From: Candidatus Thorarchaeota archaeon
Lineage (GTDB): Archaea; Asgardarchaeota; Thorarchaeia; Thorarchaeales; Thorarchaeaceae
Assembly: GCA_029858305.1 (NCBI GenBank)
Contig: JAOUFI010000023.1
Span: 1 to 31,221, forward strand
Direction of reading: 5' to 3'
DNA length: 31,221 nucleotides
Shown: positions 858-31,221 of the stretch, one piece after another
Numbering within the stretch: the first letter of the stretch is position 1
How the letters are laid out: each line of letters begins with the position of its first letter
The notes under the pieces: model-generated
Seen by the model: only the letters and a program-made list of their open reading frames with translations
Told to the model about the DNA's origin: nothing
The model's database searches: none
Translations under genes and position numbers: made by a program

Positions 858-1718
858 CTAGTGTTGACCAATCCAGAAGACACGAGATAGATCTGCTGCG
901 ATAGCAGGGTTCCATTTCATTGTCTGGAGTTCAATATCAGCCATTAATGGAACAGCTTCATCAATCATGAATGATTCGAGATCACTGCAATGATATAGTG
1001 GACTAATATCAACTGTCTTCATCTGGTTTTCACTCAAATCTAGCCAGAGTAGATTCTTGCAGTCTTTGAGAGGAAGTAAATCGATACTAAGAATTCCTGA
1101 GTTTCGCAACCAGAGCCCTTCAAGATTCTCACAACGACCTAGAGGTCGAAGATCAATTCCGTCAATCTTGTTTTGCTCAAGAAAGAGTTCTTGAAGATGA
1201 GTACAATGACTCAAAGGATCTAAATCAATGACATATAGCTCATTGCTATCCAATCTCAAAAAGCGTAGGAGAGAATTATAACTCAGAGAAGATAGGTCAA
1301 TCTGATGAATTTCATTAGATTGAAGATATAACTCCTCAAGCTGATAACATCGAGCAAGTGGATGAATATCGATTCGATTTAATTTATTGACGTCGAGTGA
1401 AAGAGAAATCAAATTGGTACATTCAGATAGAGGAGCAAGATTAATTGATGAGAGTAGATTGGAGCCTATTCGAAGTTTCTCAAGGCTTGGACATTCTTCA
1501 AGAGGTACTAAATCAATATAACGCAGCCAATTGCCGGTGAGGTCTAGTTCTCTAAGATTCTTGCAATTAGCTAAAGGTCCTAAACTCAACTCGACGATAT
1601 TTCGTCCACTCATATCTACTCTCGTTGCAGACTCATCTATCTGCATATAGAGCTCCACACCATTCTCGATTCGATAATCAATTTGAAGTTCAGTCATAAG
1701 TGTCCTCACCTGTTTCAT
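858..1718 (-). CDS. Leucine-rich repeat protein (about 9 repeats of 24 aa)
   Basis: Repeats of consensus LxxLxLxxNxLxxIDLxPLxxCxx, e.g. LRELDLTGNWLRYIDLVPLEECPS; no signal peptide or TM segment. Confidence 0.9.
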   Translation of the reverse strand: MKQVRTLMTELQIDYRIENGVELYMQIDESATRVDMSGRNIVELSLGPLANCKNLRELDLTGNWLRYIDLVPLEECPSLEKLRIGSNLLSSINLAPLSECTNLISLSLDVNKLNRIDIHPLARCYQLEELYLQSNEIHQIDLSSLSYNSLLRFLRLDSNELYVIDLDPLSHCTHLQELFLEQNKIDGIDLRPLGRCENLEGLWLRNSGILSIDLLPLKDCKNLLWLDLSENQMKTVDISPLYHCSDLESFMIDEAVPLMADIELQTMKWNPAIAADLSRVFWIGQH

Positions 1719-1837
1719 ACCGACAGATTAGCACAACCAGATTATTCCTAAATATCTACTGTCATCCTCGAAACTACATTGAGCTTGGGGAAAGTCATAA
1801 TAAATCGCCGAGTCAAATCCCTGTAATATTAATTTGA

Positions 1838-2560
1838 TTATCCGAACCTTCCATCCTCACCTTGCTCATGATGCCATTCTATTGTATTAATGATTTCATT
1901 GATTGGCTCAGGGAAATAATGTTGATGCTTTAATTTGTGGTTTGCCCTGATTAATACATAGTCATCAAGTACAAAGGACTCCAGCTGTTCACAATGAAAT
2001 AGTACTGAAATATCAATTGAACTAATCGCGTTCTCATTTAAGTGGAGATATCTCAAATCAAGTGAGTGTTCCAGCGGCGCTAAATCAATATTGGAGAGTC
2101 TATTTCCAGAGAGAACAAGGTATTGGAGTTTTGAATGACCATTCAGGGGACTAAGATCAATTTCATGAAGCTGATTATCAGCTAGATATAGCCACTTCAG
2201 ATTTTTACAATTTCTGAGCGGTTGTAGGTCAATCTCACTCAGAAGATTGTCCGATAGCTCAATAGCTTCTAATTCCCGACACCTAGCTAAAGGATGTAAA
2301 TCGATGTTTTCAAGCCTGTTTGATGTTATGCTGAGGATCTTCATTTTTGTACATGCGGAGAGAGGCATCAAGTCTATGGCAGATATGATGTTCGTATTGA
2401 GAATCAGTTTTTCAAGACGGGGACAATTGCCGATAGGCTCAAGACTCACTGATTTTATTCCAAGGTCAGACAAGTCAATCTCGGAATGATAATCATCCTT
2501 CTCAACCTGATACCTTTCGCCTTCTGAATCTATGTATCTAATGGTGAATCTGGCCACCAT
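1838..2560 (-). CDS. Leucine-rich repeat protein (about 7 repeats of 24 aa), paralogue of 858..1718
   Basis: Same repeat consensus (LEAIELSDNLLSEIDLQPLRNCKN) and same caps (N-terminal IxYxxxxG, C-terminal LESFxxD...W). Confidence 0.9.
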   Translation of the reverse strand: MVARFTIRYIDSEGERYQVEKDDYHSEIDLSDLGIKSVSLEPIGNCPRLEKLILNTNIISAIDLMPLSACTKMKILSITSNRLENIDLHPLARCRELEAIELSDNLLSEIDLQPLRNCKNLKWLYLADNQLHEIDLSPLNGHSKLQYLVLSGNRLSNIDLAPLEHSLDLRYLHLNENAISSIDISVLFHCEQLESFVLDDYVLIRANHKLKHQHYFPEPINEIINTIEWHHEQGEDGRFG

Positions 2561-8975: not shown

Positions 8976-9215
8976 CTATTTGATACGTTTGATGTACCAA
9001 ATGAGCTTATCGCCTTCTTCAACAAGTTCAACTATCTCATTGCCACTTCTCTCAGCCCAGGCGGGGAAATCTTTCTTTGTGCCGATATCTGTGGCTATCA
9101 CTTTGAGAATCTGTCCAACCTCTATTGCTTGGACTTCCTTCTTCGTCTTTAAAATTGGCATGGGGCATCTCAACCCACTTGCATCGAACTCTGCTGCAAA
9201 TTGATGATCGGTCAT
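8976..9215 (-). CDS. tusA: TusA/SirA-family sulfur carrier
   Basis: DASGLRCPMPILKTKK (CPxP motif), GQILKVIATDIG...DFPAWA; 79 aa; GGAG upstream of the start. Confidence 0.93.
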   Translation of the reverse strand: MTDHQFAAEFDASGLRCPMPILKTKKEVQAIEVGQILKVIATDIGTKKDFPAWAERSGNEIVELVEEGDKLIWYIKRIK

Positions 9216-9262
9216 TGTTGTGTCGCTCCTTGCTCGATTAATGAATGGTTTTATGCATTTCT

Positions 9263-9282
9263 CTAGTGATTAATTTCACTAG
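9263..9282. promoter_or_regulatory. Perfect 7-6-7 inverted repeat in the divergent tusA / membrane-dsrE promoter region
   Basis: CTAGTGA-TTAATT-TCACTAG, 47 bp upstream of the tusA start. Confidence 0.4.
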
Positions 9283-9425
9283 TTTTTTTCACATAATTAT
9301 GTACGAAAACAAGCATAAGTTAAGACCTGTATTTACAGAATGAAACCATTACGCTTATGAAAATGTTCCTTTTCGACATGTTTATCTAATATTTTTTTAG
9401 CTCAGAAGACAACAGGTGTAATACT

Positions 9426-9818
9426 ATGGCACTTTTTCAATTGATTCTGTTCGTTCTTCTGGCCTTGAACATTAGTACTATGTTCTCGGGCTTTATGCTT
9501 GCTAGGAGAATGGGCTTCTATCTAATGAACCAAGTCATGGCATTGATGATTGCGATGATGATTGGCATTGCTGCCTTGGTTGTGGGTTTCTTCTTCCCTC
9601 CTGCACCAGCAATGTTTGATTATCTTCACATCATTATATTCCTTGACTTCATTCTTGTTTTACTTGGAACACTCATGCAGTTTGGTCAGATTCTGCCCAC
9701 TCTGCTAAAGACAATGCAAGGCGGTCCGTTTCACAGCTCGCACATGACCAATTTATTGGTCACGTTGTTTTTGCTGCTTGGACTCGTAATTTACTACGTA
9801 GAATTGGCTGTCATGTAG
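9426..9818 (+). CDS. Small Met-rich 4-TM membrane protein of unknown function
   Basis: 130 aa, four hydrophobic helices, FHSSH loop; CAGGTG upstream; 3 bp gap to dsrE suggests an operon. Confidence 0.7.
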   Translation: MALFQLILFVLLALNISTMFSGFMLARRMGFYLMNQVMALMIAMMIGIAALVVGFFFPPAPAMFDYLHIIIFLDFILVLLGTLMQFGQILPTLLKTMQGGPFHSSHMTNLLVTLFLLLGLVIYYVELAVM

Positions 9819-9821
9819 GAG

Positions 9822-10196
9822 ATGAAATCAAAAATGGCTAGTCTATATATTGTTGGACAATGGGGTCCTGAAGCGGCGGAGAGATGCTATGGTCCCTTTG
9901 TAACTGGTACTACTGCACAGACACTTGATGTTTCGGTGACGATCTTCCTCATGATGGATGGAGTCATGTTGATGAAGAAGGGAGCTGCCGAGAAAGTGAA
10001 GGCACCAGGTTTTCCACCGTTGCCGGATCTCATCAATTCCTTCCTCGAAGCTGGTGGAAAGATTCAGGTCTGCTCAAACTCTGTTGAATTCAGAGGAATC
10101 AAGCAGGGAGACCTGAGAGACCCCAGAATTGAGATTGCGGGAGCTGCCACCATGGTGGATGATGTGTTAAAGCACGACCGTACAATGACTTTCTAA
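9822..10196 (+). CDS. DsrE/DsrF-family sulfur-relay protein
   Basis: VTIFLMMDGVMLMKKG...EAGGKIQVCSNSVEFRGI...IAGAATMV with the conserved DsrE Cys, plus an extra N-terminal Cys (ERCYGPF). Confidence 0.88.
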   Translation: MKSKMASLYIVGQWGPEAAERCYGPFVTGTTAQTLDVSVTIFLMMDGVMLMKKGAAEKVKAPGFPPLPDLINSFLEAGGKIQVCSNSVEFRGIKQGDLRDPRIEIAGAATMVDDVLKHDRTMTF

Positions 10197-10253: not shown

Positions 10254-12056
10254 TTAGATGAAGTCCGGATAACAATTCCTCAAAGCTAGATTTAGGACTG
10301 CATTCCGAATGGACTCATCGGATATGAATCCCGTTAATTGTTCCTCACAGATCTTGATGAATGGAAGCATTGGAAGCTGATTGCGATCGACCCCCTTCGA
10401 TGGATCATCAACATTGATTTCTTCTATAATCGTGCGAGGCACATTGAGTTCGTCAAGTACTCTTAGAAGTGTTTCCATAGCAGGATCACAGAATACACAA
10501 TGGTTTGATTTGTAGAAGGTAATGCAAGTATAGCGGCCGCAAGGCAATTCCTGTGCTTCAACCCACATTGGAAGCATCATTACAAACTTGGCACCTTTTG
10601 AATGGTTACCTTGGACGCGGTCCTCGACCCTTATCCTACCTCCCAAACTTTTGACTATTTGGTCCACTAATGTGAGTCCTAAACCTCTCCCGATAATTTG
10701 TTGATCTGGACTCCCTGTTCTTCTGAAAATGAATTCTTTCGCTTCATCAGGAACACCAGGACCTTTATCGATGAATTCGATTCTAACCATCTTCAAATTG
10801 TCAATACGCTCTGCATTCACCTCAACTTCTACAATATCATTTTCATCGAAGGACAACGAATTGTGAATAATATTGAAACAGACTTGGTGAAGGTATTCGT
10901 GACCCGCGATCTTGAACTCCCCTTTTCTAATGTTAGTTTTCAACGAGAGCTTCTTCCACGGGAAGTCCTCTTCAGCTGCATACTTGGCTATCTGAATATA
11001 ATCAAAAAGATCCACTTCTTCTAGTGAAGGTGGAGATTCATGGAGTCGCAAAATAGCATGCATATTTGCCGTCATTCGAGCAGAACGTCTAATTTGCCAA
11101 CTTGATTGCTGCATCATAGAACGAATCTGCTCAGACAGTTTGGGCATTGCTTCTACAAGCCCAAGTGAGAATAATAGACTCTGATTGATATTGTTGAGGT
11201 CATGTGTCATCACCTCAAGATAGAGGTTAGCACGCTCCCGTTCATCATTTTCTCTGCCTTCAGCAGTTTTTCTTCTGTCAATATCAATTGCCATTAGACC
11301 TATATTTGAAGACTTGTCAGGATACTCCAAAAGGTTCGCGGTCACACTCACCCATGTAGATCTTCCATCAGATCGCTGAAGTTGCATCTCAAAGTCCTCA
11401 AGGCTCTTGCCTTGTGAAACTTCTGACATGACCGCGGTGAGAATCTCTTTCCTTTCCTCATTTGGGAGAAAAGTCGCAAGATTTCTCCGAAGAAGTTCAT
11501 CTTCCTGATAGCCTAGAAGACGGCACGCAGCCTTGTTGATTTGGAGAATATTTCCTCGAAGACTGAGCGTAATGTAAGCAATGGGAGATGAGTCGAATAG
11601 TGCCCTGTATCGACTCTCGGAGGCATCTATTGCAGCTTCCAATTCTTTCTGGCTCGTGATGTCTCTAACAATTCCAAGCGTTGCAGGGAGACCAGATATC
11701 ACGAAGTATGATGTGCTAATTTCTACATCAAGTAGAGTGCTTCCTTTCATCATGAGGCAAGCACGAAAACTAGGCTGATCTAATTCACCCCAATGAAGAG
11801 CCTCTTGACCTTCCTTATAGTAATGGGCGGTTGCTATGTCGAGGATACTACTGACAGGTTTACCAATTAGCTCACCATCATCAAAACCAAGCATTCTATG
11901 CAGAGCGGGATTTACAATAGCTAATCGATCCTCTTGAATGACCATGATACCATCATTTGCCATCATGACCATATCTTCAAAGTGAATATTATGGTCAGGT
12001 GCGCGCTTCGTGTTCTCATGATCCTGCAAATCTATCACCACTTGGATAATGACCAA
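10254..12056 (-). CDS. Soluble PAS-PAS histidine kinase with C-terminal thioredoxin-like (CVFC) domain
   Basis: Two PAS/PAC units; H box EVMTHDLNN, N box FNIIHNS, G1 DKGPG, G2 GRGLGL; tail ITFYKSNHCVFCDP...INVDD...LPMLPFI...LTGF. The exact start is uncertain. Confidence 0.9.
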   Translation of the reverse strand: MVIIQVVIDLQDHENTKRAPDHNIHFEDMVMMANDGIMVIQEDRLAIVNPALHRMLGFDDGELIGKPVSSILDIATAHYYKEGQEALHWGELDQPSFRACLMMKGSTLLDVEISTSYFVISGLPATLGIVRDITSQKELEAAIDASESRYRALFDSSPIAYITLSLRGNILQINKAACRLLGYQEDELLRRNLATFLPNEERKEILTAVMSEVSQGKSLEDFEMQLQRSDGRSTWVSVTANLLEYPDKSSNIGLMAIDIDRRKTAEGRENDERERANLYLEVMTHDLNNINQSLLFSLGLVEAMPKLSEQIRSMMQQSSWQIRRSARMTANMHAILRLHESPPSLEEVDLFDYIQIAKYAAEEDFPWKKLSLKTNIRKGEFKIAGHEYLHQVCFNIIHNSLSFDENDIVEVEVNAERIDNLKMVRIEFIDKGPGVPDEAKEFIFRRTGSPDQQIIGRGLGLTLVDQIVKSLGGRIRVEDRVQGNHSKGAKFVMMLPMWVEAQELPCGRYTCITFYKSNHCVFCDPAMETLLRVLDELNVPRTIIEEINVDDPSKGVDRNQLPMLPFIKICEEQLTGFISDESIRNAVLNLALRNCYPDFI

Positions 12057-12299: not shown

Positions 12300-12629
12300 G
12301 TGGCGATATTGGTGAGCGAAGGTAAACAGGTTCATCTTGGATATGATGAAGATGAGATCTCTGGTGTCATAGCTATGTTCAAAGCGTTGTCAGATCCAAC
12401 AAGACTTCAAATAATATCTGTATTAACTCAGGAGAGTGGCATCTGTGTTTCCGATATTGCACAGATCTTGAATATGTCAATTAGCCGAGTTAGTCATCAT
12501 CTGAGTATGTTAGAGAAACTGGGTTTTACGCGGCATAAACAACTTGGAAAACAGGTCTATTACAAAATCGATGATGATTGTATTGTAGATATTCTTACGA
12601 GGGCACAAGAACATGTTAGAGGTAGCTGA
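12300..12629 (+). CDS. ArsR/SmtB-family metalloregulator
   Basis: FKALSDPTRLQII...ICVSDIA...SRVSHHLSML...GKQVYYKIDDDCI...EHV; overlaps the ATPase start. Confidence 0.93.
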   Translation: MAILVSEGKQVHLGYDEDEISGVIAMFKALSDPTRLQIISVLTQESGICVSDIAQILNMSISRVSHHLSMLEKLGFTRHKQLGKQVYYKIDDDCIVDILTRAQEHVRGS

Positions 12630-14523
12630 AGACACCTGTACGACTTGTGGTAGTCCACAGGAAGTCACCGATCGCAAGCCAAAGAACTACAAATATGGCA
12701 TCGCAGTATTCTCTGCAGGAATGATCGGCATTGGCTTAATCCTAGAGATTCTTAGCGTAGATTTGATGTGGATCTATGCTGCATTTCTGGCTTCGATGCT
12801 CTCTGCTGGGCAATTCGTTATCCCGAAAGGACTTAGAGGACTCGCTCGATTGAAACTTGATCAACACTTTCTAATGACATCTGCATCTTTTGGAGCGATG
12901 ATAATTGGAGCCCCCGCCGAAGGAGCGGCAGTGATGTTTCTCTTCTACATCTCAATTCTATTGGAGGAGAAAGCAGAGGATAAAGTCAGAGATGAGATAC
13001 AGGCGCTTGTAGAACTAGAACCTCCGTCAGTCACAATCAAAGTGGACGGAACAGAATTCTGTACCACTCCAGAGGATGTTAAAATAGGAGATATCCTGAT
13101 TGTGCGGCCTGGAGGACAGATTGGACTTGATGGAATAATCAAAACAGGTGCAACATCTGTTAATCAATCATCAATCACTGGAGAGTCACTTCCAATACCG
13201 AAGTCAGTCGGCGATCATGTCTATGCAGGCACGATAAACCAAGAGGGATACATCGAAGTAGAAGTTACCGAGAAATCAAATGAATCAGTTCTTTCAAAGA
13301 TTATTAACTTGGTAGATGCCTCTCGCAAGAATCGAGCACCGACAGAGAAGGCAATTTCTAGGTTTTCAGTGATCTATACACCGATAGTCGTCCTTCTGGC
13401 ACTACTAGTAGCAATCATATCGTTTGTGCAGGGACTATCCATTACTGATTCAACATATCGGGGATTAACTCTTCTAGTAATTAGTTGCCCTTGCGCATTT
13501 GCGGTCTCGATTCCAGTTAGTATGGTATCAGCAATTGCGGGCTCAGCAAGAAATGGTATCTTAGTTAAAGGAGGAATTTTCATCGAACAGATGAGCAAGA
13601 CAGGAGTTGTTGCTTTTGACAAAACGGGCACGCTCACAGAAGGCGTGTTGTCAGTCAAGGATGTATGTATGCATAACAACTATTCACGAGACCAAGTTTT
13701 GTCTGCTGCTGCGTCACTCGAAACGATGTCAGAACATCCTATCGGAAGAGCACTTATCGAGGCTACAATTAGAGAAAATGTGGAGAAGGTTCAAGCATCA
13801 GAATTCAGGTCGATACCAGGAAGAGGTGTCATCGGTAATCTAGGTGAAACTGAGTATTTTGTTGGTAATCGAAGACTCCTTCTTGACAATCAAGTTCCTT
13901 TGGATTCGGTAGAAGCACATGATTGCGGAGCTGGAACAATGGTATATGTTGCCAATGGATCAGAACACCTAGGAACAATAGTTCTCTCAGACACATTAAG
14001 GCCAGGAACAAAACGGACAGTTAAGAAACTCAAGGAAATGGGCATACACACAGTCATGTTGACTGGTGATAGCGAGAATGTTGCAAGAGAGATTGCAGAG
14101 GAAATTGGCATTGATGACTATCGAGCAGAGTTATTACCAGATCAGAAAGTAAGCGCAATTGAAGAGCTAAAGAGGAATGGAATCGTCTTAATGGTAGGTG
14201 ACGGAATAAATGACACACCTGCTCTCGCATCAGCAGACGTTGGTGTCGCACTCGGAGCTGCTGCATCAGATGCAGCTTTGGAAGTCGCAGATGTTGCGTT
14301 AATGGAACAGGATCTGACCAAAATACCTGAATTGATTCAAAACTCGAAGAAGACAATGCGAGTCGTACGTCAGAATGTCGCTACTTCTCTTACTGTCAAA
14401 GCGGTGACTGGGATTCTTGCAAGCATTGGTATTCTGACCTTGTGGATGGCAATTGGAGTAGGTGATATGGGTCTTACATTTCTTGTTATTGCCAATGCCC
14501 TCAGATTAGCAGGAAAATGGTGA
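12613..14523 (+). CDS. P1B-type heavy-metal ATPase (ZntA/CadA-like, probably Zn/Cd/Pb)
   Basis: TGES, CPC, DKTGT, SEHP, GDGIND motifs; late-TM N..K and DMG as in P1B-2; only a short N-terminal CTTC instead of an HMA domain. Confidence 0.93.
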   Translation: MLEVAEDTCTTCGSPQEVTDRKPKNYKYGIAVFSAGMIGIGLILEILSVDLMWIYAAFLASMLSAGQFVIPKGLRGLARLKLDQHFLMTSASFGAMIIGAPAEGAAVMFLFYISILLEEKAEDKVRDEIQALVELEPPSVTIKVDGTEFCTTPEDVKIGDILIVRPGGQIGLDGIIKTGATSVNQSSITGESLPIPKSVGDHVYAGTINQEGYIEVEVTEKSNESVLSKIINLVDASRKNRAPTEKAISRFSVIYTPIVVLLALLVAIISFVQGLSITDSTYRGLTLLVISCPCAFAVSIPVSMVSAIAGSARNGILVKGGIFIEQMSKTGVVAFDKTGTLTEGVLSVKDVCMHNNYSRDQVLSAAASLETMSEHPIGRALIEATIRENVEKVQASEFRSIPGRGVIGNLGETEYFVGNRRLLLDNQVPLDSVEAHDCGAGTMVYVANGSEHLGTIVLSDTLRPGTKRTVKKLKEMGIHTVMLTGDSENVAREIAEEIGIDDYRAELLPDQKVSAIEELKRNGIVLMVGDGINDTPALASADVGVALGAAASDAALEVADVALMEQDLTKIPELIQNSKKTMRVVRQNVATSLTVKAVTGILASIGILTLWMAIGVGDMGLTFLVIANALRLAGKW

Positions 14524-17973: not shown

Positions 17974-18597
17974 ATGAAAGTTCGCGTGCTATTTGTTGAT
18001 GACAATGCGGAGCTTCTGGATATTGCCAGAATTCTCTTCCAGCAAACAGATCCAAATCTCGAATTGGTAGTAGCACTATCTGTTAAAGATGCCCTTGGGA
18101 TCATGGAAAAGGAAGAGTTCGATATTATCATTTCAGACTATCTTATGCCTGATGCGACTGGTCTCGATTTCTTGGAAGCCCTTCGCTGTGCAGGCGATGA
18201 GATTGGTTTTATCATGTGGACAGGACACTCACGGGAAGAGGTTGTAATAAAGGCCCTGAATCTGGGTGCTGATTATTATGTGCTTAAGGGAACAGACATA
18301 CGGGAGCAATTCAAAGCAATTCATGACATTATCGGAAAAGTCATCGATGCAAAGTACCAATTGAAAGAGCAGATTGCACCAAAAGGAATACCATCAAATG
18401 TTGCAAGTGAGTTCATCCACAGGTTATCACATGACTTAACGGGAATCCTGCAGAACATTATGGGGTATACAACACTTTTAGAGGAAGATTTTAACAAGTC
18501 CTACATCCAAGGAATTGTGAGAATGGTAGCCAAGCTATCAGATCGCGTAAAGGAAGCGGTTATGGAAATAGACGAAGAAAGACTCATTCTGAAGTAG
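17974..18597 (+). CDS. Response regulator receiver fused to a HisKA/DHp-like helical hairpin (no ATPase domain)
   Basis: REC: LFVDDN, ISDYLMPDATG, WTG, YVLKG; C-terminal FIHRLSHDLTGILQNIMGYTTLL is an H box; the protein ends about 40 aa later. Confidence 0.85.
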   Translation: MKVRVLFVDDNAELLDIARILFQQTDPNLELVVALSVKDALGIMEKEEFDIIISDYLMPDATGLDFLEALRCAGDEIGFIMWTGHSREEVVIKALNLGADYYVLKGTDIREQFKAIHDIIGKVIDAKYQLKEQIAPKGIPSNVASEFIHRLSHDLTGILQNIMGYTTLLEEDFNKSYIQGIVRMVAKLSDRVKEAVMEIDEERLILK

Positions 18598-28016: not shown

Positions 28017-28460
28017 CTAGAAATACTTTTTTTCTAGATTCCTAAACCATGGTGCGACCTTGGCATTTTCAACTCTATCCGAGGATGGCAAGTAGGGTTT
28101 AATATCGAGGAGAGGGGTTCCATCATCTGCATCCATGTGATCGACAATAATGTAGGAATTTAATTTGTCAATCTCTTTAATTCTAACTATCGTATGACCT
28201 ATAGGATTTGGTCTTGCAGGAGACCTACAAGCAAAGACGCCTGAAGCAGTCAATCCCTTTTTCTTCGGAGGGTCTGCAAGGATTGTTCGTCGAGCTTCAG
28301 GAGTATCCATTCGGTTAATCCACCAAAGCACAATAATATGAGAAAACAAATCAAGGTGGACTGTGGCATCCCAGAATTCTTTCTCGATAACGAGCCAAAT
28401 GCCCGAGTCCGTTTTTCTGACGTGACCAATTGAAATGAGATTATATATCATCTCCAGCAC
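28017..28460 (-). CDS. trmO: TrmO/TsaA (YaeB)-family SAM-binding tRNA methyltransferase, single-domain form
   Basis: FSHIIVLWW, GVFACRSPARPNPIG, DADDGTPLLDIKPY. Confidence 0.88.
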   Translation of the reverse strand: MLEMIYNLISIGHVRKTDSGIWLVIEKEFWDATVHLDLFSHIIVLWWINRMDTPEARRTILADPPKKKGLTASGVFACRSPARPNPIGHTIVRIKEIDKLNSYIIVDHMDADDGTPLLDIKPYLPSSDRVENAKVAPWFRNLEKKYF

Positions 28461-28664: not shown

Positions 28665-29783
28665 TTGAATGCTATGAAAGCAATCAAGATTGGCAATGTT
28701 AAAAGTGAACCAGGCAAGATTAACTACGGATTCATTGATGCAATGGCTCTACCTACTGGCACAGTAGATAGAATTCCAGTAGTTATCGCTCAGGGCAATA
28801 AAGAAGGACCAACATTTTTCCTTACTGCTAATATCCATGGCAATGAACTAACTGGTGTTGCAGTTCTCCATGAATTAGTAACGGAAGATTTAGTTAGGGA
28901 TCTAAAGGGGACAATTGTTTCGATTCCAACCCTAAATCCAACAGCTTTGAGACTTTATCAACGGCATCCAGAGTATCAAGATGAAGATCCAAATCGTCAA
29001 TTTCCAGAAGGCAGATTTGCGAAACCAGACGAAGAAGATGAAGATAAGAAGTATCCAAAACCCTTCGAACAGGTAGCCAATCTTCTCTATTCATACTTCG
29101 AAAAATATGCAGACTATCATTTGGATATTCACAATCATTCCCTTCGCTCTGTTCCCTACTCAATCCTAGATCGCATCTTTTATGACGGTGTTGAAGAAAG
29201 AGCAGAGGCTGAAGAGCTGGCCAAAAAGCAACTTGGCATGGTTGAAGCATTTGGCGCAGGAGCTATGATAACTACAGATTTTCCACCCAAGAAATACATG
29301 AATTTGAAATATCACAGGTCATTATCTGGCGCGGTATTGAATACTCTTAGAATACCAGCCTTCACAGTTGAACTTGGAAGTAACAGCGTACTTATTCCGG
29401 AGATTGTTACTGGTGCGGTAAAAGCAACAAGGAATCTTCTGAGATGGGCAGGTATGCTAGAGTCACCAAAGGAGAAAATCACGGAATACAAGGTACCGAT
29501 ACCTGAGTATCGAATTAGACGTATCGAGCATCCCCGTGGAAAACATTCGGGTATTGTGAAACTACTCGTCGGTCCTGGTGAGAAAGTGGCAAAGGGCCAA
29601 GTTATTGCTAAGATTACGGATATTCATGGAAGACCACTAGGTGATGGTGTCATCAGAACTGAGCATGAAGGGTATATGATAGCTCTTCGGGATCAGATGA
29701 CTGTTTACCCGAATATGGGAATAGCTGAAATGGGAATCAAAGATGAGGATGAGATCCTATCTCCTATGCCTCCAAAAGACTGA
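28665..29783 (+). CDS. Succinylglutamate desuccinylase/aspartoacylase-family (M14) zinc hydrolase
   Basis: HGNELTG, DPNRQFP, LDIH, FTVELG; C-terminal barrel-sandwich segment (GIVKLLVGPGEKVAKGQVIA). Confidence 0.9.
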   Translation: MNAMKAIKIGNVKSEPGKINYGFIDAMALPTGTVDRIPVVIAQGNKEGPTFFLTANIHGNELTGVAVLHELVTEDLVRDLKGTIVSIPTLNPTALRLYQRHPEYQDEDPNRQFPEGRFAKPDEEDEDKKYPKPFEQVANLLYSYFEKYADYHLDIHNHSLRSVPYSILDRIFYDGVEERAEAEELAKKQLGMVEAFGAGAMITTDFPPKKYMNLKYHRSLSGAVLNTLRIPAFTVELGSNSVLIPEIVTGAVKATRNLLRWAGMLESPKEKITEYKVPIPEYRIRRIEHPRGKHSGIVKLLVGPGEKVAKGQVIAKITDIHGRPLGDGVIRTEHEGYMIALRDQMTVYPNMGIAEMGIKDEDEILSPMPPKD

Positions 29784-29788
29784 ATCAA

Positions 29789-31221
29789 TCAACCAGCTGT
29801 AAAGATCATCCTTGAAACAGCGGAGCGTAAGTCCTCTTCTGAGAGATACCCAGACAACTGTTCAGGGCCTAAATAGATAGTAGGCAAAGCAGGGAGATCA
29901 TCCTCAGAAACCTCGTTTGTAGGATCATCAACATTGATGATGTTTACAATAAACGGATCAATACCCATCTCTGCAAGAACAGAAGTTAGACTTGCTAATA
30001 CTGGACCACAGAAGACACAGTGATCGGATTTGTAGAAGAGAATCTGTGGAATCGGTAATGCTTCTTTCCATGCTGGTATTAGCACAACAAACTTGGAACC
30101 TTGAATCCGTTTTCCCTCGAGGATGTCCTCAATCCAAATCCTGCCACCTAAGTGTGAGATATATCTATCAACAACTGTGAGACCAAGACCCCTTCCGGCT
30201 AATGGGTCCTTGGACTCTCCCGCTCTTCTAAAGATACGCGCTTTCTCCTCATCAGAGATTCTTAGGTCTGTGTCCTCAAATTCTATTCTCACCATATTAT
30301 CGACTTCTGTTCTGTGAGCTTGAATATTTAGATGGACTATCTCACCCAAATCGACGCTTGCGCAATAGTGAATGATATTGAAAAATATGTACCACATGAA
30401 CGCATGACCAGTCACAATAAATGCATTATCTGCAATATTTGAGGAGATTTGAATGGTCTTCCATTCAAAGTCTCTCAGAGCTTCTCTAACTGCTTTATTA
30501 AAATGAGGTAATAGGCGAGTTTGAGTCTTCTCAGGAGGAGATTGGTCAAGAGATATTAGGACACCCATATTAGCAATCATACGTGCTGCGTTCCGCAGAC
30601 TCCAGGCAGTCTCACTTAGGAGGTTCTTTAGACGTTCAGGAAGGTCAATTGAAATGCTCAAGTCTTCTAGTGCAAAAAGGACATTCTGATTCGTCATATT
30701 CAAATCGCTGGTCATAACATCAAGGTAGAGATTTGCTCTTTCACTCTCTTCTCGAAGATTTTGTTCCATTGCGCGACGTCGTGTTATATCAACCGCAGTC
30801 AGAGCAATTTCAATTGGTTTGTCAGGGACCGATGCTAACGATCGCGCGGATACACTTGCCCAAAGGCTTTTTCCTTCCCTACCTCGAAATTCCATCTCAA
30901 GGTCCTTAATGCTTTTACCGATGAGTACTTCTCGTATAATGTCTGTACCAGGATTATAACCCGGTTTTGGTTCAGGAAGGAAATCGGAAATCGGCCGCCC
31001 TATAATGTCCTCGGCATTTGATCTGAGGAGTTCTTCGGTTGCAGCATTAACTTGTTCTATCATCCCATTTCGATTCAATGTAAAGTAAGCAACCGGAGAA
31101 ACATCATAAAGAGATGCGAATCGATTTTCTAACTCTGTCACTGCAGCCTCCAATGCAATTTGCTTTGATATGTTCTTAATACTAGCAAGAGTGGCTGGTT
31201 TTCCCTTTAGAGTGACATGGG
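29789..31221 (-). CDS. PAS pseudo-histidine kinase with C-terminal thioredoxin-like (CVFC) domain; 5' end lies beyond the window
   Basis: The frame stays open from 31153 to the edge (HVTLKGKPATLASIKNISKQIALEAA, the PAC end of a previous PAS). It is colinear with 10254..12056, but the H box reads DVMTSDL, the N box NIIHYC and G1 DTDLR; tail FYKSDHCVFC...LPALPTI. Confidence 0.88.
   Translation of the reverse strand, partial: HVTLKGKPATLASIKNISKQIALEAAVTELENRFASLYDVSPVAYFTLNRNGMIEQVNAATEELLRSNAEDIIGRPISDFLPEPKPGYNPGTDIIREVLIGKSIKDLEMEFRGREGKSLWASVSARSLASVPDKPIEIALTAVDITRRRAMEQNLREESERANLYLDVMTSDLNMTNQNVLFALEDLSISIDLPERLKNLLSETAWSLRNAARMIANMGVLISLDQSPPEKTQTRLLPHFNKAVREALRDFEWKTIQISSNIADNAFIVTGHAFMWYIFFNIIHYCASVDLGEIVHLNIQAHRTEVDNMVRIEFEDTDLRISDEEKARIFRRAGESKDPLAGRGLGLTVVDRYISHLGGRIWIEDILEGKRIQGSKFVVLIPAWKEALPIPQILFYKSDHCVFCGPVLASLTSVLAEMGIDPFIVNIINVDDPTNEVSEDDLPALPTIYLGPEQLSGYLSEEDLRSAVSRMIFTAG

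Follow-up and report, generated by a model that had tools for sequence, protein, structure and literature searches.

A thorarchaeal histidine-kinase paralogue without its phospho-acceptor histidine and with a thioredoxin-like tail: a probable pseudokinase

Results

Genes and features of the locus

We have analysed a contig from Candidatus Thorarchaeota archaeon (GenBank assembly GCA_029858305.1, JAOUFI010000023.1, positions 1 to 31,221 of the forward strand; this whole stretch of 31,221 nucleotides (nt) is called the window below), at one end of which lies an open reading frame (ORF), here called B, for a histidine-kinase-like protein that lacks the phospho-acceptor His and ends in a thioredoxin-like domain. 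A second gene of the window, A, encodes a paralogue that bears the His. An earlier reading of the window's letters, made without database searches (the original prediction), had taken B to be a catalytically dead paralogue of A, preserved by selection for functions other than phosphorylation. The features that bear on this are listed here; PAS denotes the sensor domains, DHp the dimerization and histidine phosphotransfer domain, CA the catalytic and ATP-binding domain, AF2 an AlphaFold2 model and pLDDT its predicted local distance difference test score.

29789..31219, minus strand: B, the His-less PAS-DHp-CA-thioredoxin-like ORF; residues ~125-600 of the full protein, 5'-open
30785..31123, minus strand: second PAS domain of B, residues 33-145 of the window ORF (Pfam PAS_9, E 4.7e-10; PAS_4, E 8.3e-10; AF2)
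30542..30784, minus strand: DHp two-helix hairpin, residues 146-226 (AF2 helices 146-190 and 195-226)
30707..30709, minus strand: Ser171 (AGC) at the phospho-acceptor His position; counterpart in A is CAT (His), 11202-11204; confirmed in independent contigs
30071..30532, minus strand: CA (HATPase_c), degenerate, residues 230-383 (Pfam 39.5 bits, cut-off 26.4; Foldseek matches to histidine kinases)
30365..30367, minus strand: Tyr285 (TAT) in place of the second N-box Asn; column aligned to HK853 N380
30260..30274, minus strand: G1 box remnant DTDLR, Asp kept and both Gly gone; this copy only
30179..30196, minus strand: G2 box GRGLGL, retained (sequence comparison)
29792..30070, minus strand: C-terminal thioredoxin-fold domain, residues 384-476 (AF2, pLDDT 88.3; Foldseek; profile matches)
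30008..30022, minus strand: H-C-V-F-C active-site-like motif; the H, both C, the F and the following P are invariant in a 55-sequence alignment
29882..29896, minus strand: LPALP with the cis-Pro equivalent, invariant P63 of the domain alignment
10254..12056, minus strand: A, the His-bearing paralogue, 600 amino acids (aa); H, N, G1 and G2 boxes intact; tail with CxxC and four accessory Cys

We observed that B comprises 476 codons in one unbroken frame, which contains no internal stop and runs past the edge of the window; the frame is also intact in all full-length orthologues, as the original prediction had claimed for this copy. A and B align with 193 identities over 473 positions (41%, E 4e-126). 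The missing 5' end, whose recovery had been proposed as a check, was located on another contig of the same assembly (C198:148-519, minus strand), which encodes the N-terminal 124 aa from a start ATG (MSTDDS...) and with them the first PAS domain. The window end (31073-31221) and G000:C198:1-149 share a 149-nt overlap inside B with a single synonymous mismatch, which probably reflects strain variation that broke the assembly. The overlap was taken from the end sequences together with a 100% protein match, and the two parts of B were treated throughout as separate pieces. Read in this way, full-length B is a predicted PAS-PAS-DHp-CA-tail protein of ~600 aa with the same layout as A.

Pfam recognised PAS and HATPase_c domains in both paralogues and HisKA in neither; the HATPase_c match begins at profile position 24 in B, downstream of the N-box, and at position 5 in A. 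The 476 residues were modelled with AF2 from an alignment of 45 sequences (pLDDT 78.9); the model contains a PAS domain, a two-helix DHp, an alpha/beta CA domain whose lid (residues 333-342) is disordered, and a small beta-alpha-beta-beta-beta-alpha domain. The DHp hairpin of class I kinases is thus present in the model, and dimerization through it is predicted. With this model, Foldseek returned PAS-histidine kinases (YF1, WalK and HK853), DivL (4q20, TM score 0.69 on the target) and NifL, the kinase matches having E-values of 1e-10 to 1e-20.

Catalytic residues of B

Class I (HisKA-type) kinases have a phospho-acceptor His, an N-box Asn that we take to bind Mg, and a DxGxG G1 box, and none of these is found in B. 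The His codon of A is replaced by a Ser codon, and nowhere else in the DHp is a His invariant. The H-box peptide is otherwise kept (RANLYLDVMT-S-DLN), and the DxxN motif at +1/+4 from the His, which presumably marks canonical phosphatase activity, is intact in A and has Met at +4 in B. The N-box NIIHNS of A becomes NIIHYC in B (30362-30379), where Tyr285 occupies the column of HK853 N380, presumably that of the Mg ligand. The G1 box DKGPG of A becomes DTDLR in B (30260-30274), and a profile alignment to HK853 places the remaining Asp in the G1 Asp column. By contrast, the G2 box and the Bergerat (HATPase_c) fold are retained in B, and IFRR.G (IFRRAG), GRGLGL, HCVFC, INVDDP and LP.LP (LPALP in B) are common to both paralogues.

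Every statement of the original prediction about these motifs, from the change of the His codon to the retained elements, was borne out at the codons concerned. It had also held that the His change was not a read error. We found the Ser, Tyr and DTDLR codons unchanged in metagenome contigs of three other studies (X3, X4 and X7; the DTDLR remnant specifically in contigs of X4 and X7), and because the same codons recur in independent contigs, the lesions are not assembly errors. As judged from these residues, B cannot be phosphorylated on the canonical His. We infer that it no longer autophosphorylates and that, in this genus, it probably does not bind Mg-ATP productively.

Range of the family and order of the losses

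A scan of one genome per prokaryotic species yielded 101 relatives, of which 80 were kept; all are labelled Thorarchaeota, Promethearchaeota or uncultured/unclassified archaeon. Within the genus, a B orthologue was found in all 24 other genomes (59-84% identity; three are partial) and an A orthologue in 22 of them, the two without one being G003 and G017 (both 85% complete). The states of the motifs in the genus, with the A-type set including one sequence of a third paralogue, were as follows.

Acceptor position: B, Ser 23/25 and Asn 2/25; A-type, His 23/23
N-box Asn column: B, Tyr 22/24 and Phe 2/24 scorable; A-type, Asn 23/23
G1 DxGxG: B, intact in 15/24 scorable and partly degenerate in 8 others; A-type, 23/23
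CxxC: B, all scorable; A-type, all

The predicted loss of His, N-box and G1 together therefore held in part: the His and the N-box Asn are lost throughout the genus, but loss of the G1 box is confined to the window copy. In the nearest species, B has a degenerate G2 box (GRSLSL).

We placed these proteins on an outgroup-rooted FastTree tree that comprised 92 kinase-thioredoxin proteins of Thorarchaeota, each 450 aa or longer (shorter fragments being omitted), and 4 other Thorarchaeota kinases. Motifs were scored by alignment-based extraction. All 50 of the His-less proteins group in a single clade (support 1.0) that lies within the 42 His-bearing ones. Its sister (support 0.984) is a small His-bearing group, which constitutes the third paralogue (L037 (G024), L099, L102, L103 and L104). 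Backbone support among the His-bearing groups is 0.2-0.7, and only the nodes with 1.0 and 0.984 were relied on. Counts on the tree were as follows.

Former His position, 50 His-less proteins: S 38, Q 6, N 3, K 1, R 1, T 1
N-box Asn: His-bearing 42/42; His-less 23/50 (otherwise Y 23, F 2, H 1, S 1)
G1 intact: His-bearing 41/42; His-less 39/50
G2 'GLGL': His-bearing 42/42; His-less 42/50
CxxC: His-bearing 42/42; His-less 48/48 scorable
Four accessory Cys: His-bearing 40/42 (the other two truncated); His-less 13/50

On this tree the His is lost once, early in Thorarchaeota. The accessory Cys residues are lost next, together (37 tips, support 0.986), then the N-box Asn (a genus-level clade of 26 tips, support 1.0, and one independent case), and last the G1 box, in the window copy only. 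The ATP-site motifs decay only after loss of the His, as would be expected if ATP use had become dispensable. The proposed check that orthologues lack the His but keep the CxxC came out as anticipated: the His is absent from all 50 members of the clade, so that its retention in orthologues, which would have pointed to an isolated event, was not seen, and all 48 that could be scored retain the CxxC, the His before it and the cis-Pro. As a separate observation, in several genomes of other genera His-less proteins of the Gln type occur alongside the third paralogue as their His-bearing partner.

A and B also occur together, as had been proposed: in 23 of the 25 genomes of the genus, in 11 of 15 genomes of other genera (2 showed only A and 2 only B, and these genomes may be incomplete) and in 4 of 4 further genomes from the genome scan (15 of 19 non-genus genomes overall). 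In many genomes they lie 17-34 kb apart on one contig, and in a complete chromosome 110 kb apart. Old paralogues would be found together through vertical descent in any case, and their joint presence does not show that A and B bind each other.

The thioredoxin-like tail

Modelled alone, the last 93 residues of B fold as beta-alpha-beta-beta-beta-alpha, and the top Foldseek matches of this tail are thioredoxins (TM scores 0.6-0.7, best E 4e-4). Profile searches matched it to the thioredoxins 6mos (E 0.007) and 1fo5 of M. jannaschii (E 0.016), with its CxxC and cis-Pro aligned to the CxxC and 'VPT' loop of both. Among 55 tail sequences, C18 and C21 (the CxxC, at the N-terminus of helix 1) and P63 are invariant, as in a thioredoxin fold. 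In these models the label 'kinase-thioredoxin' of the original prediction is correct at the level of the fold, the tail being a divergent member.

Against 1.84 billion representative proteins, the profile of the tail domain gave only 97 matches at E <= 1e-3. The best 22 of these include 13 proteins of 453-593 aa that carry the domain at the C-terminus, the others being fragments, and most of the remaining matches are stand-alone proteins of ~105-130 aa. A stand-alone homologue is encoded in the same genome (L007:1432-1767); in a protein atlas, it clusters with Thorarchaeota 'hypothetical' and Thioredoxin_3/glutaredoxin-like groups. An M14 carboxypeptidase-like ORF (L007:2-1093, minus strand; HxxE motif, by eye) adjoins this stand-alone six-Cys gene, and B likewise has an AstE/M14-like neighbour, possibly by coincidence.

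The nearest true relatives of the tail are Thorarchaeota proteins of ~105-120 aa with six Cys. Four of these, besides the CxxC, are common to A, to the deep His-less relatives and to the stand-alone ~110-aa proteins, in the layout CG(R/K)xxC ahead of strand 1, 'IC' following strand 3 and a C-terminal 'xC(Y/F)'; in A they are found in PCGRYTC (10524-10544), IKIC (10347-10358) and NCY (10269-10277). Because all four vanish together in the 37-tip subclade that contains B, their distribution suggests that they form one functional unit, for example a metal/Fe-S site or structural disulfides.

Selection on A and B

We estimated nonsynonymous to synonymous rates (dN/dS) by the Nei-Gojobori method on close pairs, comprising 8 B pairs with computable dS (saturated in parts of 2) and 6 A pairs. 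The values for B were 0.03-0.17 in each of PAS1, PAS2, DHp, CA and tail, and those for A were 0.02-0.20; between the window species and its nearest relative, omega for B was 0.06 overall and 0.09 in the CA domain. The relaxed selection that would have spoken against the original prediction was thus not seen. Against its nearest orthologue, B is least conserved in the CA domain (75% identity, dN 0.142, vs 0.074 for the CA domain of A in the same species pair), and the DHp is its best-conserved domain in the genus, with 52 of 78 columns at least 90% conserved vs 42 of 78 in A. The clade-wide loss of the His, the low dN/dS and the co-occurrence with A together uphold the view of B as a catalytically dead paralogue under selection rather than in decay, and the PAS, DHp and CxxC elements, said to be preserved as the phosphorylation residues were lost, are all three conserved across B orthologues.

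Fixed differences between A and B number 12 among 42 in the DHp and 6 across the 155 columns of the CA domain. Those in the DHp cluster at +4, +8, +9, +12, +14 and +15 from the former His; in canonical kinases, the region past the His (+4 to +15) contacts the receiver.

Gene conversion between A and B was considered as the source of the shared H-box peptide and rejected. Only 4 of the 18 identical residues there share a codon, and in the most similar segment B is no closer in nucleotide sequence to A of its own genome (58%) than to A of other genomes (55-58%). The shared peptide is held by selection, not by gene conversion. Elsewhere in the gene, the proportion of identical A/B residues with the same codon is higher at B residues 361-400 (30020-30139) and 401-440 (29900-30019), 22 of 35 there vs about one third in other parts; when A sequences from other genomes were compared, recent gene conversion was not indicated.

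Comparison with known systems

The pseudo-histidine kinases known so far are a few bacterial examples, among which DivL is the best studied; DivL is bacterial and membrane-anchored and has Tyr at the His position. Like B, it has several PAS domains and a DHp-CA core without the acceptor His, and it is kept as a non-catalytic regulator, a role that B would share. Unlike B, DivL ends without a thioredoxin-like tail and has known partners, DivK~P and CckA. B, for its part, is archaeal and soluble and carries Ser at the His site; the N-box Asn and G1 are gone from it too. Apart from the kinase fold that both have, the two show no specific homology. DivL from Caulobacter crescentus is described as a pseudo-histidine kinase that senses a response regulator (PMC4211667).

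Another comparison is with RdmS/MsmS ('MA_type 2') of Methanosarcina acetivorans, in which, according to the source, the whole H-box is absent and which bind and hydrolyse ATP without autokinase activity (PMC11784639). As described there, they resemble B in being archaeal, cytosolic and rich in sensor domains, in having no phosphorylatable His and in being linked to thiol/redox sensing; they differ in having no thioredoxin-fold domain, whereas B keeps the H-box peptide minus the His and has lost ATP-site residues. Judged from its sequence, B is therefore not of the MA_type 2 class, which is defined by an absent H-box and retained ATP use.

A itself, like its family in Thorarchaeota, has the same PAS-PAS-DHp-CA-thioredoxin-like layout as B, with 41% identity and the H-CxxC-xP and cis-Pro elements. 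A differs in keeping the His, the Asn, G1, G2 and the four accessory Cys, and in having ArsR, P-type ATPase, DsrE, DUF5400 and TusA genes beside it. As for the tail, the thioredoxins 1fo5 (M. jannaschii) and 6mos (Thermosipho), its best matches by profile and by Foldseek, share with it a minimal fold of ~85-90 aa in which a CxxC opens helix 1 and a loop carries the cis-Pro; the tail differs in its marginal sequence match (E 0.007-0.016), its H-C-V-F-C motif and its fusion to a kinase core. In SasA of Synechococcus, a histidine-kinase core is likewise fused to a thioredoxin-like fold, which is KaiB-like and serves signalling, not bulk redox metabolism; there, however, the domain is N-terminal and binds KaiC, and SasA is an active kinase. 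The thioredoxin-like domain of SasA is not known to have a CxxC. ArcB, RegB and SrrB are active kinases whose activity is tied to thiol/disulfide state, with redox Cys in PAS, DHp or CA; unlike B, they are not known to have a dedicated thioredoxin-fold domain for these Cys. SrrB (6paj) was among the sequence matches.

Archaeal signalling is barely characterised, and Thorarchaeota are uncultured. The main text of a census of archaeal two-component systems contains no kinase-thioredoxin fusion, thioredoxin appearing there only in reductase-receiver fusions (PMC5847659), and the main text of a paper on Asgard kinases does not mention thioredoxin, although one Lokiarchaeal kinase without the catalytic His is noted in it (PMC10343646). 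Full-text literature searches found no such fusion either, and the census supplements could list such proteins. An archaeal, thioredoxin-tailed, lineage-wide pseudo-histidine kinase with decay intermediates is apparently undescribed.

Discussion

B shows what defines a pseudo-histidine kinase: the fold is kept, catalytic residues are lost and the gene is under purifying selection. That it is a conserved, non-phosphorylating pseudokinase is, on these comparisons, very probable. How it would act is a less certain matter. By analogy to DivL, B would be a phosphate-independent signalling protein: a DHp-mediated dimer would read signals through two PAS domains, would read also the thiol/disulfide (or metal) state at the invariant H-CxxC-xP site, and would relay the result via its highly conserved DHp/CA surface to a partner, which might be a receiver protein, kinase A or another protein. 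Such a partner-binding mechanism, to which the conservation of the DHp lends indirect support only, we hold, taken by itself, at slightly under an even chance; for the combined proposal, that B is a selected, DivL-like pseudo-histidine kinase which acts by binding a partner, the balance tips modestly in favour. If this is so, a lineage-wide, strongly selected pseudokinase is paired with a His-bearing twin, both bearing a thioredoxin-fold CxxC domain, and the graded natural series of losses (His, then accessory Cys, then Mg-Asn, then G1) lets one ask what a kinase core does without phosphotransfer and bears also on whether a thioredoxin fold can serve as a signalling input or output.

Several observations weigh against the proposal. 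The G1 Asp (an adenine contact), the F-box and the G2 box are still conserved in B, and nucleotide binding without Mg is possible. The deep His-less relatives retain a complete ATP site, and their His-less ancestor may therefore have gone on using ATP. None of the genes that neighbour B encodes a receiver. The tail of the window copy matches no Pfam Thioredoxin, Glutaredoxin or Glrx-like model at threshold, the best Pfam E-values among the 55 tail-domain members being 0.002-0.007, none of which reaches threshold, and the chemistry of the tail may be redox, metal or that of a pure binding surface.

The original prediction had itself offered a kinase/pseudokinase heterodimer regulated by thiol-disulfide exchange. 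In such a pair, a mixed A-B DHp four-helix bundle would form, B would modulate A (or, ancestrally, have trans-phosphorylated it) and the CxxC domains would set the state of the pair. The co-occurrence of the two genes, often at 17-34 kb on one contig, the near identity of the H-box helix despite differing synonymous sites, and the deep His-less relatives with an intact ATP site (Asn in 23 of 50), which fit a CA domain acting on the His of a partner, are in keeping with this; descent alone would account for the co-occurrence, however, and some genomes have only one of the two. The genes are not operonic and their conserved neighbours differ, the 12 fixed differences within the DHp include diverged positions beside the former His, and paralogous kinases usually evolve to avoid cross-dimerization. 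We regard the heterodimer as rather unlikely, since neither the diverged DHp nor the separate gene contexts favour it. It is still less likely that, as the original prediction had suggested as an alternative, the tail is itself the output, B being a PAS-controlled thiol-disulfide oxidoreductase in which the dead kinase core transmits from PAS to CxxC as a dimeric transducer. The fold, the helix-1 CxxC and the cis-Pro loop would suit such an enzyme, as would the invariance of the H, C, F, C and P, the persistence of the CxxC after kinase loss and the existence of stand-alone relatives, one in the same genome. Yet constraint on B is strongest in the DHp and not in the tail, and C-V-F-C after a His differs from the classical thioredoxin and glutaredoxin sites, the domain reaching no Pfam threshold. 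B is, besides, without the four accessory Cys still present in A and in the stand-alone relatives, and no thioredoxin reductase or obvious substrate gene is among the genes adjacent to B.

A kinase that used ATP on a non-His acceptor, the Ser at the old His site, or on an external substrate, in the manner of RdmS/MsmS, would account for the Ser in 38 of 50 His-less proteins and for the retained G1 Asp, F-box and G2 box. We consider it very improbable: the Mg-Asn column is Y, F or H in all 26 genus-level tips, both G1 glycines are gone in this copy, and the Q, K, R, N or T found in 12 of the 50 makes a conserved phospho-Ser unlikely. Isolated pseudogenisation, which would leave B a functionless copy in decay, is hardly credible; the low conservation of the CA domain relative to that of A, the G1 loss here and the degenerate G2 of the sister species would fit it, but neither this copy nor any full-length orthologue has a broken frame, dN/dS stays low in the CA domain as well, the 50 members of the clade come from several genera and independent metagenomes contain the same sequence.

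Gene neighbourhoods of A and B

On one side, A is flanked by a TusA-like ORF (8976-9215, with a CPMP motif), DUF5400 and DsrE genes (8976-10196 in all), and on the other (12300-14523) by genes that read divergently from it, one for a regulator of the ArsR family and one for a P-type ATPase that has a CPC motif but gave no HMA match. Loci of the A type, in other genera too, have ArsR (49), DsrE (47) and P-type ATPase (37) neighbours, these locus counts including duplicates since many genomes were fetched twice. This setting hints that A may be linked to metal or sulfur status. The TusA, DsrE and ArsR/P-type ATPase genes adjoin A, not B.

In many loci, other genera included, the next gene after B on its strand is TrmO_N-like (147 aa; 28017-28460, minus strand, in the window); this order is found, for example, in L065, L069, L071, L110 and L129, with a gap of 17 nt after the B stop in L069. 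In the lineage of the window, an AstE/M14-like gene (28665-29783, plus strand) sits between the two. A further gene (17974-18597, plus strand) encodes a receiver (REC) domain joined to a DHp-like helix that bears an H-box (RLSHDLTG), with no CA domain, and was found between A and B in 13 of the 24 other genomes of the genus. Having no CA domain, the REC-DHp protein would need a kinase domain in trans. The wider redox network that had been drawn from this gene and from TusA/DsrE would have synteny as its sole basis.

A bolder view would make A and B the two arms of an undescribed Asgard module that couples thiol, sulfur or metal status to two-component signalling via a thioredoxin-fold domain. 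A would be wired to its metal-efflux and sulfur-carrier neighbourhood (ArsR, CPC-type P-type ATPase, TusA, DsrE); the thioredoxin-fold domain would comprise the CxxC and an accessory four-Cys site, possibly for metal or Fe-S; and B would have been first a His-less yet ATP-competent partner, for instance one that trans-phosphorylated A in a mixed dimer, and later a non-catalytic allosteric regulator. We think this unlikely as a whole. Were it true, living lineages of the 50-member clade would still display every intermediate step by which the pseudoenzyme evolved.

Apart from these genes, the window contains two adjacent genes for leucine-rich-repeat proteins of 286 and 240 aa (858-2560, minus strand; LRR_8, E 2e-22 and 4e-19).

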